DNA from: a virus
Lineage: Duplodnaviria; Heunggongvirae; Uroviricota; Caudoviricetes
Virus record (IMG/VR): IMGVR_UViG_2609459831_000017
DNA length: 22,417 nucleotides
Direction: 5' to 3' (one strand)
In this document: positions 3,307 through 22,417 of the stretch, piece by piece
Position numbering within the stretch: position 1 is the stretch's first letter
How the letters are laid out: every line of letters begins with the position of its first letter
The notes under the pieces: generated by a model
The model's database searches: none
Told to the model about the DNA's origin: nothing
What the model saw: only the letters and a program-made list of their open reading frames with translations
Translations under genes and position numbers: made by a program

Positions 3307-3882
3307 CTACGGCAGTGCTGGCCATTCAATATCCTGTGCAGTTGACGTATCAACACGGTTCAGCAATACCCGATACTTTTTCCATGCTTCCAGCAACGAG
3401 ATTTCTTCCTCCGTTGCAATTTCCAGATCTGCAGCATCCTGAAGCGGCGCAATATGCTCACTGGCTACCTGCATCAGGTTGTTTTTTGTTTCTTCCGCCT
3501 CCCGGATCCGGAACAGTTTTTCTGCTTCCGTATCCTTCACCCAGGCTGTGCCGTTCCACTTCTGAAACTCCCCTTCCGGCGATAACCAGGTAACATTTTT
3601 CGGTAACGGACCGAGTTCAGAAATAAATAACGCGTCGCCGGAAGCCACGTCATAAACCGTTTTACCCCGATGATCTTCAACGAGATGCCACGATGACTCA
3701 TCACTGTTGAAAACAGCCACGAAGCCAGCCGGAATATCTGGCGGTGCAATATCGGTACTGTTTGCTGGCAGACCTGTATGAGGCGGAATATATGCATCAC
3801 CTTCACCAATAAATTCATTAGTTCCGGCCAGCAGATTATAAATTGTTATGGTCCGTGGTTGTTCACTCATTCTGAATGCCAT
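3307..3882 (-). CDS. tfaQ: tail fiber assembly protein
   Basis: 191 aa; matches recalled TfaQ/lambda Tfa. Its start overlaps the stf stop (TAATG). Confidence 0.85.
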
Positions 3883-6800
3883 TATGCAAGCCTCACAATA
3901 TAGTTAAATGCGATGTTTTTGACGGTGTTTTCCGCGTTACCAGCAGCGTTAACGGTGATGGTGTGTCCATGTGAGCCAATCGCAACGGAGTGCGTATGAG
4001 CACCAATACCGACAGTATGTGCGTGTGCACCTGCGCTTGCAGCAGTACCCGATACAGAGTGCGTATGAGCGCCTGCAGAAGAAGTGTTAACACTGTATTT
4101 AGAATAATCAGGTGATCCACTTCCCGGAGCACCACTGGAACCACCTGAAACAAATGTCATCGAATGGGTATGTGCACCGGCTGAAGCAGCCGTACCGCTA
4201 ACACTATGGGTATGTGCACCAGTGTTATTCGTGGATTTAGTGCCGTAATCAAACGATGATGTGGTTTTCGTCCCCAAATCCGTACTGGATGCGCTGGCGC
4301 TGTGGGTGTGCGATTTAATGCCGTCCTGTTCCTGAGACAATACGGCACGACCACTGGCGGGCTTGCCCTTAATCGTCCAGCCACGCATATCAGGAATAAC
4401 GCCTGACGGATAAGCCACTGCAAGTTTCGGGTATGCAGATTTGTCAAAAGTCTGCCCCTGCATCAGGGCATAGCCAGACGGAACGGTATCTGATGGCCAC
4501 GGGATTGGTGCGCCGACTGGGTAGCTTTCTGGTGGAAGATTTTTCGAGGTATAAACTTCTGCCCAGTCATCCTCAAAACCATAACCGTCTCTTGAAGAAC
4601 GGTAGAACAGACCACCATTTCTGTAATGCGCCTTCATCTGCAAGGTCCGGCAACTTCCGACTCCGGTATAGAAGTTAACCAGAATATAGCTGTCGCCAGA
4701 GCGGGTGACATTGTAAGCACCTGATTCGGCATTCCAGGGAACGCCACCATCCGCATCGGCATATGTATCCGTTGCCCTTCTGGCAAAAGCAGCCACATGC
4801 GCGGCGGTTAAAGTAATATCTCTGGAACCATCAAACTCAACACCAGAAACCAGTCTTGGCGTTTGCAGCTTTGTTGCTGTTAATGCATTACCGTTCAGAC
4901 TTGCGGACAGTTTGGTTCCAATAACCAGTTCGCCGGTTGCGTTATAAATAGCAAACGGTCTTAATGTATTCCAGCCACCATAAACATCACCTTGATTGGT
5001 AAGCAGCAGGTAAGTTTTAGCGCCATCATTACGCCATAATGCACCATACTCCCCACCTATCATTCGAATCTGATTACCACCACGCGCTACAATTTCGTCT
5101 GTGGCAAAAAGTTTTTTGCACGACAAATTATCGTTAACGATTAACGAATGAGACTCATAAAAACCACGCCCACTCTTAAAATCAAGGATAACGTCCGCCG
5201 CGATACATTCAGTCGCTGGATTTGTTGCCCCAAACTTATAGGTCGTATCATTAACAACGAGATCAGCACCAGGTGCGGATATTGACAGGCCATCTTCGAT
5301 AAACGCAAAAACAGGGAAAGCAGCGCCATCAACATAGAACACAGAGCGCAAATCATCGCCCTTATTACTCATCATTATTGAGTGGATGGCTCGTTCATTG
5401 TTTTGATATTGCCAGAACATTCCATAAGCATAACGCCCCCTGTCAGTCCAGCCACCAGGCATAACAAATCCGTTAAACTCGCAGTTATTCATCGGATCGC
5501 CTGCGGTTCGCGTTGCCGTGGTGATAATGACCCTTGATGCCAGTTCGCTTACTGAGCCAGCAGAACGCATAACAACAACAGGGTAATATTTTCCAGATGT
5601 TGCACCTGCAGGAGCGTTAACCCGCACATAACGCATACCACGCTTATCAGCAAAGTCTGTTTTACTGACCGCGTTAATGTTGTTCAGGAAGCGTCCCTTA
5701 TCGGGTATATCAGTGCCGTTCTGGTCTTTCTGCAGACGTTTCTCTGCATTGTCATAGGCTGATTTTACTGCCTTTGGCGTTGCCGCCAGCGTTTCAGACG
5801 TACTGTTGGTCGCACTGCTGAGCTGTACTATCCCCTTTTTCGTCGTGCTCGCATCCTCAAGCGCCACGGCGGATGCAATATCCTCTGCCCGTTTTGCTGC
5901 TGTCTCGGCGCGCGTTGCCGCGGATTCCGCCGTACTTTTGCTCTGAGCTGCCGCCGTCGCACTGCCAGCTGCCTCTGTCGCCTTCGTGGATGCCGTCGTG
6001 GCGCTGCCCTTCGCTGCTGACGCCTGTCTGGTCGCCTCATCTTTTGAAGCAGACGCCGATGATGCCGATGACGCCGCCGAACTGGCTGACGATGCGGCAG
6101 CCGTTTTTGAGGATTCTGCGCTGGTTTCCGACGCTTTCGCGTTCGTTTCGGATGTCTTCGCTGCGGAAGCTGACCTCGCTGCTACCGTGGCCTGTTCAGT
6201 GGCTTCGCCAGCCTTCGTTGTGGCTGTTGAAGCGGATGATGCGGCGCTTTCTGCCGACTTTCCGGCAGCGGTGGCACTGGCTGAGGCCTGCCCGGCATTT
6301 GTTGACGCGGCGCTGGCAGATGAGGCAGCCGCTGTTTTTGAGTCTGCTGCTGCGGAGGCACTCTGTCCCGCTGCCGTCTCAGAAGACTTTGCGTTCGTCT
6401 CGGACGTTTTTGCCGCCTTCGCGGAAGTTCCTGCCGCTGTTGCCGAGGAGGCTGCACGACTGGCGCTCGAGGCTGCGCTCGTTTCTGATGATTTTGCCGC
6501 CTCTTTTGAAGCCGACGCATCCCTGGCTGAGGTGGCAGCTTCTGACGCTTTCGTGGTCGCGGTGGATGCAGAAGTGGCGGCTGATTGTTCTGACGCTGCC
6601 GCATTCGTTTCTGACGTTTTCGCCGCACCGGCACTGGTAGCCGCCGCGCTTTTTGAGGACTCTGCAGCGGCAGCACTTTTTGAGGCTTCAGTGGCCTTTG
6701 TTGATGCCGTTCCTGCGCTGGAAGACGCTGACTGAGCCGACGACGCGGCCTGTCCGGCTGACGTGCTGGCTGCACGTGCTGAATCTGCAGCATCAGTCGC

Positions 6801-12308: not shown

Positions 12309-12514
12309 TTCATTTTCACTTTTTTAAATCCAACGACAGACGGCTGGCATTTAAGTATTGTGAAATATTATCAAATGTAATCATCATTGATTTACAAAAG
12401 ATACATTTTGCCCCGAAAGGATTCATGTCAGAAACATCAAAAGATGATGTTCTATACTGGGAACCATGACAACACGGGCATCTAAAGTGAATATGGTTTG
12501 TAATATTGTCTACC

Positions 12515-12727
12515 TCAAAGCGCCACTACATGAACAGCGGCAGGACCTTTAGGTCCGTTCTCAATACCAAATTCAACTTCCTGATTCTCAGTTAATGTTT
12601 TGAAATCGTTGCTCTGAATTGCTGAGAAATGGACAAACACATCTTTGCTGCCATCTTTCGGCGTGATGAAACCAAAACCTTTTTCAGGGTTAAACCATTT
12701 CACTAAACCAGTCATTTTGTTAGACAT
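12515..12727 (-). CDS. cspI: cold-shock protein, CspA family
   Basis: 70 aa ([38 protein letters not shown]...) with RNP1/RNP2 motifs (KGFGFI, VFVHF). Confidence 0.9.
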
Positions 12728-13089
12728 AATTATTACCTTTTGAAGAAATTAGCCCTTGGGCAGAATGGTCCGAAAAAAAATATCAGAGAGAAAAACCAAC
12801 AAGGAAATCTCAAGAGGTACAAATAATAAAATTATAACAATGACTGCTTCAGATAAATTTGTAACAAACCAGAACACCATTAACGCATGATTAACCACCC
12901 ATAGCAAGGATTACTTTTGTAAAGAAAAACACAGCAATGAAAGAATAGCTTTATTTATTAATAAAACGTGTCATTCTGATTAAGACCTTTTATCTTACCC
13001 TTAAGATTTCAGGAATTTTGGCTCATGGAAGAGTCCTTTTTATTTAAATTTTACATTCCGCGATGTAAATGTTCCGATTTAATATTACC

Positions 13090-15117: not shown

Positions 15118-15398
15118 GAGATTGTGGTGCTTTTTGTGGGAGTCATCCACTTACGCACTTTGTTTTGCCATGCCAGCAGTTAGCTTCTGCTGTAAAACTA
15201 TTCATGCAGCAAACCTGCACTTCACCACAATGGTTAGCATACTTTTCCTGATTAAGATTTTGCCAAATATGCTAGCCATTGTTTCATGTATTGGACCTCC
15301 TTACTTTTTATTAAAGAGATCCAATATTCACTACTCTGTCCGTATCTCTACTCAGGCATCAGCCTTCTTCGTTATCGTATACAGACGAGCGATGAATT

Positions 15399-15614
15399 TT
15401 AATCAGTAATGATGACATTTGCTGCTGCAGGACCTTTAGCACCACTCTCTATAGAGAAGGTAACCTTTTGACCTTCAAATAAGGTTCGATAATTATCATT
15501 CTGAATCGCAGAAAAATGCACAAACACATCTTTACTACCATCAACAGGAGAAATAAAGCCGAAACCTTTATCAGCGTTAAACCATTTTACTAAACCAGTC
15601 ATTTTATTTGACAT
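15399..15614 (-). CDS. cspB: cold-shock protein, CspA family
   Basis: 71 aa ([53 protein letters not shown]...). Confidence 0.9.
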
Positions 15615-15914
15615 TCTACATTCCTTAACTTGAGCCTTTCGGCATAAATGGTTTGCATAACAGAAACGACTTCGTACTTAATTGGAGAGACTCAAAGAAG
15701 GAATAAGTGAATAACACCTGAAATGAGAACTGCTTTAGTAAACTACTTCGTATATCGTCTGTTCTTCAAACCGACGCAATCATTAACGCATAGTTGAACA
15801 TATGAAGCAATGTTTATTTTAGACATCCAGCCATCTTCAACCCCATCAAAAAACTATAGCTTTCTTCAGGAACGTGTGTATAGTGCGCCAAGTTATCAGT
15901 ATTAAGGAATTTTT

Positions 15915-17314: not shown

Positions 17315-18364
17315 TTACGCCAGTACGCCAATTGCCAGCGCGCGATCGATAAAACGAAATATCAGCTCCAGTTGGGAGCCATACTTATCTTCAAATGCCA
17401 CTGTATCCGTATGCAGCTCGTTGTGATGCTTTCTGCACAAAGGCAACACAAAGAGATCATGTGCTTTTGTTCCCATTCCGCCCTGCCCGTGACCAATCAG
17501 ATGATGCGGATCGTCGGCTGGCATACCGCAGCAAGCACACGGCTGTGTCTTAACCCAACGTGTGTATTTCTCCTTAACCCAGCGGCGACGTTTAGGCAGC
17601 TTCATGAAAGATTCCGGAGACTCTGGATCAACGGTGATGCTTACCACCGTCTTTTCCTGTGGTGATTTTTGTTGCTGGTGGGCGTAAGGCAACGGTGCAA
17701 GATTTTTTGTGCGTTGTTTCAATATGCTGGTGGCGGTCTGCTCTCCCGGTACGATGTCGCTTTCGCGGTACACCGAGCAGATTTTTTCCGCTGGTAATCC
17801 CAGCGAACGACGCGATACAGCCTCAGGTAGTGCATCCACCACCTGATTGCAGACCGCCCACCAGGATAATTCAGCCAAAGATAATTCCCGCTCCTGCGTA
17901 CCGCTTATTGCGTGACGGATGACGTCAATCACCCATGCTGTCAGATTTTGTTGAGCAAGCAGCTCCAGTGATTCCGATGTCTGGTCACGCAGTTGGTTGT
18001 CGCAGTGCCAGCACAACACCATTGCGCCGGTACCATAACGGTGAATGACTGTTTCAGTGTGATGGTAATCGCCATTAGGCCACTGGCAGGATGTAACATG
18101 ACGTAATAGCCAGTCGGACAATGCGCCAACGCCGCCAGCAGCACGAATCACCCGTTCGTTACTAAAAAACGGCAGCAATGTTTTGTCTTCCGCCAGCGGC
18201 TGGCGAACGGCAGGAACGACTCCGGATGGCAGATTACGCATGCTTTTTGGTTCCGGTTCCACCAGCACTCGAGGATTATGAAATATCTGTATGGATTCAC
18301 GGCCCGGCTTAAGGACCACCAGCCCAAGCTCAGGCACCAGAACAGGTCTAAGTAATACCCGCAC
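17315..18364 (-). CDS. ydfU: YdfU-like protein (DUF968) with C-terminal HNH-like Cys/His motif
   Basis: 349 aa from GTG at 18362-18364, 1 nt below the rem stop; an in-frame extension reaches 18403 (362 aa). C-terminal motif QPCACCGMPADDPHHLIGHGQGG...CRKHHNELH. Ends 14 nt upstream of the Q start. Confidence 0.7.
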   Translation of the reverse strand: MRVLLRPVLVPELGLVVLKPGRESIQIFHNPRVLVEPEPKSMRNLPSGVVPAVRQPLAEDKTLLPFFSNERVIRAAGGVGALSDWLLRHVTSCQWPNGDYHHTETVIHRYGTGAMVLCWHCDNQLRDQTSESLELLAQQNLTAWVIDVIRHAISGTQERELSLAELSWWAVCNQVVDALPEAVSRRSLGLPAEKICSVYRESDIVPGEQTATSILKQRTKNLAPLPYAHQQQKSPQEKTVVSITVDPESPESFMKLPKRRRWVKEKYTRWVKTQPCACCGMPADDPHHLIGHGQGGMGTKAHDLFVLPLCRKHHNELHTDTVAFEDKYGSQLELIFRFIDRALAIGVLA

Positions 18365-18365
18365 G

Positions 18366-18644
18366 TTACCTCCAGATCCGTTGCTGGAAAGTGCGGGACG
18401 CACGTGGTGGGCGTTCGGAATAAGGCAGCCTGACAGAGATTATCCAGTGCCGATAGTCGAGACTGAGAGCTTTCTTAACCTCGAACCCGCGCCTGCGGTA
18501 AGAATGAATCAGCCATTCGGCCTGTTCTGCAGTGCATGGAGGGTGCTGGAACCATTCAGACTTGAATGCGTGAGAATACCGCCCGTGCGTGCAGGCAAGA
18601 ACGGGCGAATTATCAGAATTGTAATATTTTGCGTTGCGTGCCAT
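18366..18644 (-). CDS. rem: Rem-like small protein, function unknown
   Basis: 92 aa (MARNAKYYNSDNSPVLACTHGRYSHAFKSEWFQHPPCTAEQAEWLIHSYRRRGFEVKK...) with ATG at 18642-18644, immediately upstream of ydfU. Confidence 0.6.
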   Translation of the reverse strand: MARNAKYYNSDNSPVLACTHGRYSHAFKSEWFQHPPCTAEQAEWLIHSYRRRGFEVKKALSLDYRHWIISVRLPYSERPPRASRTFQQRIWR

Positions 18645-18710
18645 CGGTTTTCTCCGGTGGCACGGTGTTACTCAGCGGGAGTTCAGCCCCGCGCAAGATT
18701 GTAGATGAGT

Positions 18711-18962
18711 TTATTCTCCTGAAAAAGCAGAAAAGCCAGCTTTTATTCCGATCTCTTTCAATGCCTGTAATGAAGTGACAAACTCACCTTCGCGCAAGAT
18801 AAATCCGTCCGTGACCCGAGCATCCACAAAATTAATTAACGCAGCCCCATTCTTTCGCAAACACATAATGCGGTAATGACTAACAAGATTTCCATTTTCA
18901 ACGCACACAGCATAGAGGCCATCTTCACAAAAAATTTTACGCAGTTCTTCGATGTTCATCAT
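18711..18962 (-). CDS. hypothetical protein (83 aa), not recognised
   Basis: ATG at 18960-18962 with AAGGA 5 nt upstream. Candidate sigma-70 promoter (TTGAAG, 18 nt, TAGAAT) in 18963-19077, just downstream of the relBE-hokD terminator. Product MMNIEELRKIFCEDGLYAVCVENGNLVSHYRIMCLRKNGAALINFVDARVTDGFILREGEF... Confidence 0.55.
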   Translation of the reverse strand: MMNIEELRKIFCEDGLYAVCVENGNLVSHYRIMCLRKNGAALINFVDARVTDGFILREGEFVTSLQALKEIGIKAGFSAFSGE

Positions 18963-19077
18963 CAGAATCCTTCCGGATAATTAGCTCTCCCCTTTAAGGG
19001 ACCATCCCTCTTATCCCTGCGCTCTACTTAAGTATTTTTGATTCTATTCCGGCACCGTCCAGAACTTCAAACGCGTT

Positions 19078-19110
19078 GAAAATAAAAACAAAAACCCGCC
19101 GAAGCGGGTT
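19078..19110 (-). terminator. predicted intrinsic terminator of the relB-relE-hokD operon
   Basis: Minus-strand hairpin AACCCGC-UUCG-GCGGGUU followed by UUUUGUUUUUAUUUUC. Confidence 0.55.
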
Positions 19111-19178
19111 AAGTGCGGGTGCGTTGAGGATGCCTGCCACATCAGAGGTGGCGAGGGATTTCTCCCCCGCCGGGTCTC

Positions 19179-19334
19179 TTACTCCTCAGGTTCGTAAGCT
19201 GTGAAGACAGCGACCTCCGTCTGGCCGGTTCGGATTCGTACCTCGCAGAGGTCTTTCCTCGTTACCAGTGCCGTCACTATGACGGTTAAACAGATGACGA
19301 TCAGGGCGATTAACATCGCCTTTTGCTGCTTCAT
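19179..19334 (-). CDS. hokD: Hok-family membrane toxin
   Basis: 51 aa (MKQQKAMLIALIVICLTVIVTALVTRKDLCEVRIRTGQTEVAVFTAYEPEE), matching recalled HokD/RelF. Below the track cutoff; translated by hand. Confidence 0.85.
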   Translation of the reverse strand: MKQQKAMLIALIVICLTVIVTALVTRKDLCEVRIRTGQTEVAVFTAYEPEE

Positions 19335-19405
19335 AGCCTGCTTCTCCTGTCAACGCAAAGCAGAAGTGTCACCTTCGGTGCGAAACAGAGATGTCATGCT
19401 TTGGT

Positions 19406-21254: not shown

Positions 21255-21554
21255 ATGACAAAAACAGTATCAACCAGTAAAAAACCCCGTAAACAGCATT
21301 CGCCTGAATTTCGCAGTGAAGCCCTGAAGCTTGCTGAACGCATCGGTGTTACTGCCGCAGCCCGTGAACTCAGCCTGTATGAATCACTGCTCTACAACTG
21401 GCGCAGTAAACAGCAAAATCAGCAGACGTCTTCTGAACGTGAACTGGAGATGTCTACCGAGATTGCACGTCTCAAACGCCAGCTGGCAGAACGGGATGAA
21501 GAGCTGGCTATCCTCCAAAAGGCCGCGACATACTTCGCGAAGCGCCTGAAATGA
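21255..21554 (+). CDS. insE: IS3 OrfA (transposase N-terminal, helix-turn-helix)
   Basis: 99 aa ([43 protein letters not shown]...) from ATG 21255; the track ORF uses an upstream GTG at 21246. Confidence 0.9.
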
Positions 21555-22417
21555 AGTATGTCTTTATTGAAAAACATCAGGCTGAGTTCAGCATCAAAGC
21601 AATGTGCCGCGTGCTCCGGGTGGCCCGCAGCGGCTGGTATACGTGGTGTCAGCGGCGGACAAGGATAAGCACGCGTCAGCAGTTCCGCCAACACTGCGAC
21701 AGCGTTGTCCTCGCGGCTTTTACCCGGTCAAAACAGCGTTACGGTGCCCCACGCCTGACGGATGAACTGCGTGCTCAGGGTTACCCCTTTAACGTAAAAA
21801 CCGTGGCGGCAAGCCTGCGCCGTCAGGGACTGAGGGCAAAGGCCTCCCGGAAGTTCAGCCCGGTCAGCTACCGCGCACACGGCCTGCCTGTGTCAGAAAA
21901 TCTGTTGGAGCAGGATTTTTACGCCAGTGGCCCGAACCAGAAGTGGGCAGGAGACATCACGTACTTACGTACAGATGAAGGCTGGCTGTATCTGGCAGTG
22001 GTCATTGACCTGTGGTCACGTGCCGTTATTGGCTGGTCAATGTCGCCACGCATGACGGCGCAACTGGCCTGCGATGCCCTGCAGATGGCGCTGTGGCGGC
22101 GTAAGAGGCCCCGGAACGTTATCGTTCACACGGACCGTGGAGGCCAGTACTGTTCAGCAGATTATCAGGCGCAACTGAAGCGGCATAATCTGCGTGGAAG
22201 TATGAGCGCAAAAGGTTGCTGCTACGATAATGCCTGCGTGGAAAGCTTCTTTCATTCGCTGAAAGTGGAATGTATCCATGGAGAACACTTTATCAGCCGG
22301 GAAATAATGCGGGCAACGGTATTTAATTATATCGAATGTGATTACAATCGGTGGCGGCGGCACAGTTGGTGTGGCGGCCTCAGTCCGGAACAATTTGAAA
22401 ACCAGAACCTCGCTTAG
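21551..22417 (+). CDS. insF: IS3 OrfB (DDE transposase catalytic domain), made as an OrfAB fusion by -1 frameshift
   Basis: 288 aa with DDE/RNase-H-fold motifs ([28 protein letters not shown]). Frame is -1 relative to orfA; the overlap includes A-AAA-G at 21517-21521. Confidence 0.9.

Follow-up and report, generated by a model that had tools for sequence, protein, structure and literature searches.

Salmonella Gifsy prophages are induced by small, LexA-controlled antirepressors that bind short, non-cleavable repressors (Lemire, Figueroa-Bossi and Bossi 2011, PLoS Genet 7:e1002149; PMC3121763). These proteins, GfoA, GfhA and GftA, as well as FsoA of Fels-1, are about 80 amino acids long, and their genes lie not in the immunity region but immediately before the nin/Q genes. 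Once bound by a Gifsy antirepressor, a repressor comes off its DNA, and the action extends in trans to the repressors of other prophages (PMC3121763); expression of an antirepressor by itself is enough to derepress a prophage. Direct control by LexA is found for the Gifsy members but not for FsoA. The target repressors form the GfoR/GtgR class of short, antirepressor-regulated repressors, in which DicA and RacR were also placed (PMC3121763).

Starting from GfoA and FsoA, and building on the work of Lemire et al. 2011, a transitive PSI-BLAST search led to Rem of Escherichia coli, which was then characterised by Ragunathan et al. 2023 (J Bacteriol 205:e00129-23; PMC10448788) as a protein that switches off the prophage repressor DicA. 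When rem was placed under Ptet, expression of a dicBp-lacZ fusion in its own locus went up 165-fold, and the native ribosome-binding site and Plac worked too; thus for Rem, as for the Gifsy antirepressors, expression alone was reported to cause derepression (PMC10448788). Expression of rem also led to filamentation and growth arrest, both of which were abolished by deletion of qin or by the dicB dicF double deletion (PMC10448788). It is from the derepression of dicBp, together with this dependence on Qin, dicB and dicF, that Rem is taken to be an antirepressor of DicA, like those of the Gifsy prophages. Deletion of rem, for its part, left unchanged the accumulation of DicF, the spontaneous switching of dicBp, and induction by urea and by high temperature (PMC10448788). 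A survey published in 2024 still counts rem among the poorly characterised genes of K-12 (PMC11551758).

The window analysed here, i.e. the whole stretch of 22,417 nucleotides, matches without a single difference the sequence of E. coli 1303, a strain isolated from bovine mastitis, and takes in the greater part of Qin, a cryptic lambdoid prophage. The 83-codon ORF at 18711..18962 (minus strand, ATG start, stop included) is rem (b1561) of this prophage, a gene already named and with a published function: its product is 100% identical to ‘protein Rem’ (WP_000980994.1) of K-12 MG1655 and E. coli 1303. The initial annotation, made from the letters alone, had presented this ORF as an independent gene of unknown function, without a recognizable family, and followed by rem. 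That it is an independent gene is borne out by the ORF itself and by the selection acting on it (see below). The remainder of the description has to be replaced, since the ORF is rem itself, the next ORF downstream (18366..18644, minus strand) codes for a 92-aa hypothetical protein, WP_012304870.1, and the protein has both a family, PF27490, and a clear match to a characterised DicA antirepressor (PMC10448788). An ORF that a reader limited to the sequence could not place was thus resolved by annotation and literature search. As a gene, rem was already known; what is new here is the comparison of control regions, which gives a modest lead on the inducer of Rem.

Rem is the founding member of Pfam PF27490 (‘Rem’), an assignment that is precomputed for all of the 120 Rem homologues listed from a large protein collection; the copy of Pfam searched with Rem has no model for PF27490 and returned 0 families. 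A match to phrog_340, a family of unknown function in PHROGs, was found with an E-value of 4e-21, and the protein had no match in PADLOC and none among the sequences of the PDB. Comparison of six diverged copies gave dN/dS values of 0.11-0.41 in all 15 pairs, and this signature of purifying selection argues that rem is a real gene. The family is a small one: a HMMER search of 1.84 billion representative proteins yielded 55 members at E <= 0.001, many of which are fragments, and a scan of one genome per species placed it in Escherichia, Shigella, Citrobacter, Pluralibacter and Buttiauxella and nowhere else, except for one hit in a bin labelled Veillonella, which has the look of E. coli DNA. In one variant of 127 amino acids (P0003), present on 8 contigs, residues 1-51 of DicC are fused in frame to residues 8-83 of Rem, the junction being at a Glu-Leu that both proteins share, so that some E. 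coli genomes must have lost about 3.5 kb from between dicC and rem; a second protein of the same length (P0005) gives the same two Pfam hits. As to the structure, an AlphaFold model based on a narrow alignment was poor (pLDDT 55), and a second one, for which the short relatives described below were added to the alignment, reached moderate confidence (pLDDT 72.6, pTM 0.43). The fold predicted by this second model consists of a helix, a four-strand meander and another helix, and its comparison with known folds brought up no informative relative.

The surroundings of the gene are those of rem in K-12 Qin as studied by Ragunathan et al. 2023, with an identical protein and the same flanks: relB-relE-hokD upstream, and the 92-aa ORF, ydfU and quuQ/ydfT downstream. 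From 18300 to 19400 the window and K-12 MG1655 differ at one base only, 19023, which borders on its 5′ side the conserved leader of rem discussed below; it is T in the window and G in K-12 (plus strand). The 92-aa protein directly downstream matches phrog_1212 (E = 2e-35) and had no match in Pfam, NCBIfam or PADLOC; in PPompW, too, a 279-nt ORF lies between rem and ydfU (5331..5609 of locus L003). Next comes YdfU (17315..18364, minus strand), a DUF968 protein according to its domain matches, the C-terminus of which shows weak matches to models of HNH/His-Me finger proteins and of Ref-like (RecA-dependent) nucleases. Ref-like or DUF968 genes are also located downstream of several of the short Rem relatives. 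Between the stop codon of rem and the 92-aa ORF there is a hairpin (GCGGGG-CTGAAC-TCCCGC; 18675..18692, minus strand) that is not followed by a T run, and a promoter-like TTTTCA-16-TACAAT overlaps the end of rem (18698..18725, minus strand). A strong Rho-dependent terminator has been reported upstream of ydfU (PMC9160355). Elsewhere in the window, Rfam matches above the gathering score were obtained for IS009 RNA and for two cspA-type thermoregulator leaders (3341..3539, 12488..12873 and 15383..15775, all on the minus strand), the latter two overlapping the annotated positions of cspI and cspB, which are expected features of Qin.

The HMMER search also revealed a set of shorter proteins, of 56-99 amino acids, that have in common a C-terminal motif, GFxLRxDEFVTSL..L.EA..KAG. 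Alignment of the profile of the long, Qin-type proteins with that of the short ones (hhalign) gave a probability of 99.3% and an E-value of 7e-21, and the short relatives are thus genuine homologues of Rem. Loci were gathered from collections of genomes and viral contigs and reduced to distinct sequences, i.e. 33 of the Qin type and 66 with a short relative. A LexA box, defined as CTGT-N8-ACAG within 1200 nt upstream, was present in 49 of the 66 short-type loci, for which the remaining sequence of these loci predicts about 0.02 per locus, and in none of the 33 Qin-type ones, and dinI, looked for within 1 kb upstream, followed the same pattern (31/66 versus 0/33). The opposite distribution was found for hok within 1 kb upstream (9/66 short, 32/33 Qin-type) and for a conserved leader motif, which occurs in all the Qin-type loci and in none of the short ones. 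A homologue of irsA (DUF1367) was located within 1 kb downstream of 24 short relatives and of 2 Qin-type genes. Genes resembling dicA and dicC, which sit 3-6 kb upstream of the gene, were counted only where a flank of at least 6.5 kb was available (27 Qin-type and 52 short-type loci): DicA-like genes were found in 17 and 38 of these, respectively, and DicC-like genes in 18 and 41.

In several respects, both groups resemble the Gifsy antirepressors. The slot occupied by rem, from hokD to ydfU-quuQ, is that of the GfoA homologues of mEp237 and SEN34, in which the order is LexA box, dinI, gfoA, irsA/NinB, and rem is found just upstream of the Q antiterminator gene, in the early-right/nin region, in the functional phages mEp460, HannyBb and PhiR42_1 as well as in the PPompW prophages. 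A record named ‘Rac’ from strain 442/2 goes from dicA and dicC, further upstream, to hok, rem, irsA (DUF1367), ybcO and Q, and its depositors call rem a ‘prophage antirepressor’. The short relatives share with the Gifsy antirepressors the arrangement LexA box-dinI-X-irsA. In five of their loci (L022, L023, L024, L025 and L012, from Citrobacter, Pluralibacter, Buttiauxella and a metagenome contig) a LexA box with a perfect core lies 57-446 nt upstream of the gene. The Citrobacter locus L022 (7558..8589) has, in this order, a LexA box, dinI, the short Rem relative and a Ref-like HNH gene, and about 96% identity is shared by its DinI and the DinI of mEp237, where a GfoA-type gene is found in the same place; this is an exchange of cassettes at a single slot. 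There is, therefore, good contextual support for the view that PF27490 proteins are functional counterparts of the Gifsy antirepressors. Qin-type rem departs from the Gifsy pattern in that it comes after hok instead of dinI, is preceded by another conserved leader and lacks a LexA box. Judging from these sequences, Qin-type rem appears to have lost LexA control, which fits the published lack of induction by mitomycin C. Two further systems may be compared. Tum of phage 186 and AntC of N15 obey the same logic as Rem, in that a small protein inactivates a non-cleavable repressor, but they are different proteins (Tum has 146 amino acids and a DinI-like half) and are SOS-controlled. The IsrK-orf45-AnrP module of Gifsy-1 (Hershko-Shalev et al. 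2016) resembles the rem locus in having an antirepressor-like gene downstream of a terminated small transcript; AnrP, however, is a different and larger protein and is encoded downstream of Q.

By analogy with the Gifsy antirepressors, we consider it probable, at roughly 85%, that Rem is a small antirepressor that acts on DicA by direct binding and operator release. Once made, Rem would inactivate DicA, a short, non-cleavable, CI-like repressor, by binding to it and freeing it from its operators, as GfoA, GfhA and GftA do with their own targets; the early promoters dicBp and dicCp would then fire. The consequence in K-12 is the production of the division inhibitors DicB and DicF, and filamentation of the cells; in intact relatives such as phage mEp460 this same derepression should start lytic development. 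Formation of a complex with the repressor and its release from DNA are features of the Gifsy proteins, which are carried over to Rem by this analogy. Relief from DicA could also be indirect, through degradation of DicA, activation of dicC, competition for the operators by Rem acting as a DNA-binding protein, or a host factor. Room for such routes is left by the evidence on Rem, which is purely genetic, by a preprint of 2024 that calls the mechanism unknown (PMC11430063), and by the comparisons with the biochemically studied GfoA, which do not establish homology: BLASTP E-values were 4-8 and hhalign probabilities 29% (E = 5.7e-4), 11% and 1.7%, in the same register each time and at the edge of detection. 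But Rem has only 83 amino acids, searches of Pfam, NCBIfam and PADLOC assigned it neither a DNA-binding nor a protease domain, its short relatives occupy the exact slot of Gifsy antirepressors that do bind their repressors, and the family co-occurs with DicA-like repressors; we therefore regard an indirect action as improbable.

A different kind of explanation comes from the neighbourhood of the gene, rich in toxins and nucleases, from which the initial annotation had drawn a candidate regulator, immunity or toxin-associated factor. The first of these proposals agrees with the role of Rem as DicA antirepressor. A function in toxicity, immunity or defence, linked to relBE-hokD or to the nuclease YdfU, could find an argument in the hok gene that lies directly upstream in all but one of the distinct Qin-type loci, and in the DUF968/HNH gene often present downstream. 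Yet relBE does not accompany rem in mEp460, PPompW or ‘Rac’ 442/2; one divergent locus (L009) has rem and its leader without hok; and the short relatives mostly follow dinI rather than hok. The lack of a PADLOC match points in the same direction, and the one toxin family that came up for Rem in NCBIfam, SocB_toxin, scored 14.9 bits for a cutoff of 210 and was dismissed as a chance match. Moreover, the toxicity of rem disappears in a dicB dicF double deletion even though hokD and relE are still there (PMC10448788). Such a function appears to us highly improbable. For E. coli 1303 itself, one may ask whether rem does anything at all. Whereas the Qin prophage of K-12 has both dicA and dicC, neither is present in the Qin remnant of 1303: no sequence resembling either was found within the 46-kb locus around the window (L008), where an IS3 element (inside the window, 21255..22417) and a pseudogene for an ISNCY transposase take the place of the ydfX-dicC-dicA-ydfABC segment of K-12. 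Thus, with no dicA or dicC within 46 kb, rem is without its cognate target in this remnant, in which dicB and ydfD are retained. The gene could then be a functionless leftover of a prophage that has lost its immunity region, a reading that we hold to be possible but doubtful, as 1303 rem is intact, with a product identical to that of K-12, and as the trans action of Gifsy antirepressors reaches repressors encoded by other prophages (PMC3121763). In 1303, rem may either be idle or, like the Gifsy antirepressors, inactivate in trans the repressors of other prophages.

Under the preferred reading, that Rem is a direct antirepressor of DicA, attention shifts to the way in which its own expression is controlled. 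The promoter region lies, as the initial annotation had it, directly after the terminator of the relBE-hokD transcript (19083..19110, minus strand), in which a 7-pair stem with 5 G-C pairs (19110..19093) is followed by a T tail (TTTGTTTTTA), and which sets the upstream boundary of the rem unit. A match of the Rfam family isrK (RF01394) to the 3′ end of hokD and this terminator (19089..19170, minus strand) scored 25.1 bits, below the gathering score of 50, and involves two generic hairpins; it was rejected as a chance match. The promoter already proposed, TTGAAG (19065..19070) and TAGAAT (19041..19046) separated by 18 nt on the minus strand, was recovered in a scan of 1.8 kb as one of 3 promoter-like sites, for 1.6 expected by chance, so that the hexamers alone prove nothing. 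Comparison of variants is more telling: of 19 distinct Qin-type leader variants, only two lack TAGAAT, and in three divergent ones checked by eye (L004, L009 and L019) a TTGNNN is found 16 nt upstream of TAGAAT despite a different spacer sequence. This conservation supports the existence of a real promoter of rem, probably of the sigma-70 type, right after the hokD terminator. The ribosome-binding site that had been noticed, a Shine-Dalgarno-like GGAAGGA (18968..18974, minus strand) 5 nt before the ATG, was read again in the sequence and is present in most Qin-type variants, those of L004 and L009 being exceptions.

Between the -10 hexamer and the ribosome-binding site there is a conserved block of 35 nt (GCGCAGGGATAAGAGGGATGGTCCCTTAAAGGGGA; 18988..19022, minus strand), in which two AGGGAK repeats are followed by a C run and a G run able to form a small hairpin. 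It is this block, for the most part (from the CAGGGA repeat to the G run), that is covered by the expression distinguishing Qin-type loci from those of the short relatives. Its 23-nt core shows 1-2 differences per variant among five divergent variants, although the synonymous sites of rem differ at 41-75%, so that the block is far better conserved than neutral divergence would lead one to expect. The leader belongs to rem and not to the hok module, because it is kept in L009, where there is no hok upstream and where the identity of Rem is down to 44%. Several roles for it were considered. A coding function is ruled out by an in-frame TAA in the common Qin variant; the alignment gave no support to a conserved RNA fold (RNAalifold covariation term of +0.46, single-sequence z-score of -0.83); and no Rfam family matches the leader. 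No operator of the DicA/DicC type (TTAG...CTAA) was seen in the promoter or leader when compared by eye with the dicA-dicC intergenic region of K-12. Two ideas taken from other systems were also dropped, CsrA-type GGA sites because the second GGA is not conserved, and a hairpin resembling lambda boxB because the sequence of its loop is not.

This leader is the obvious candidate for the missing regulatory input of rem. As the Qin-type genes have no LexA box and have instead a conserved leader, their trigger is probably not the SOS response. At this point we may only suggest, tentatively and at well under even odds, that they have exchanged an ancestral control by LexA box and dinI for a promoter of their own followed by the 35-nt leader, which some factor might recognise, either as an operator or as an element of the RNA. 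Rem is the only known means of switching off DicA completely, and the contrast between short relatives under LexA control and Qin-type genes that have a leader and no LexA box provides a concrete place to look for what triggers it. If this exchange did take place, a specific signal other than SOS, read via the leader, would induce the DicA-type prophages found in E. coli and Shigella, functional phages such as mEp460 among them, and that signal would be the answer to the question of what induces Rem.
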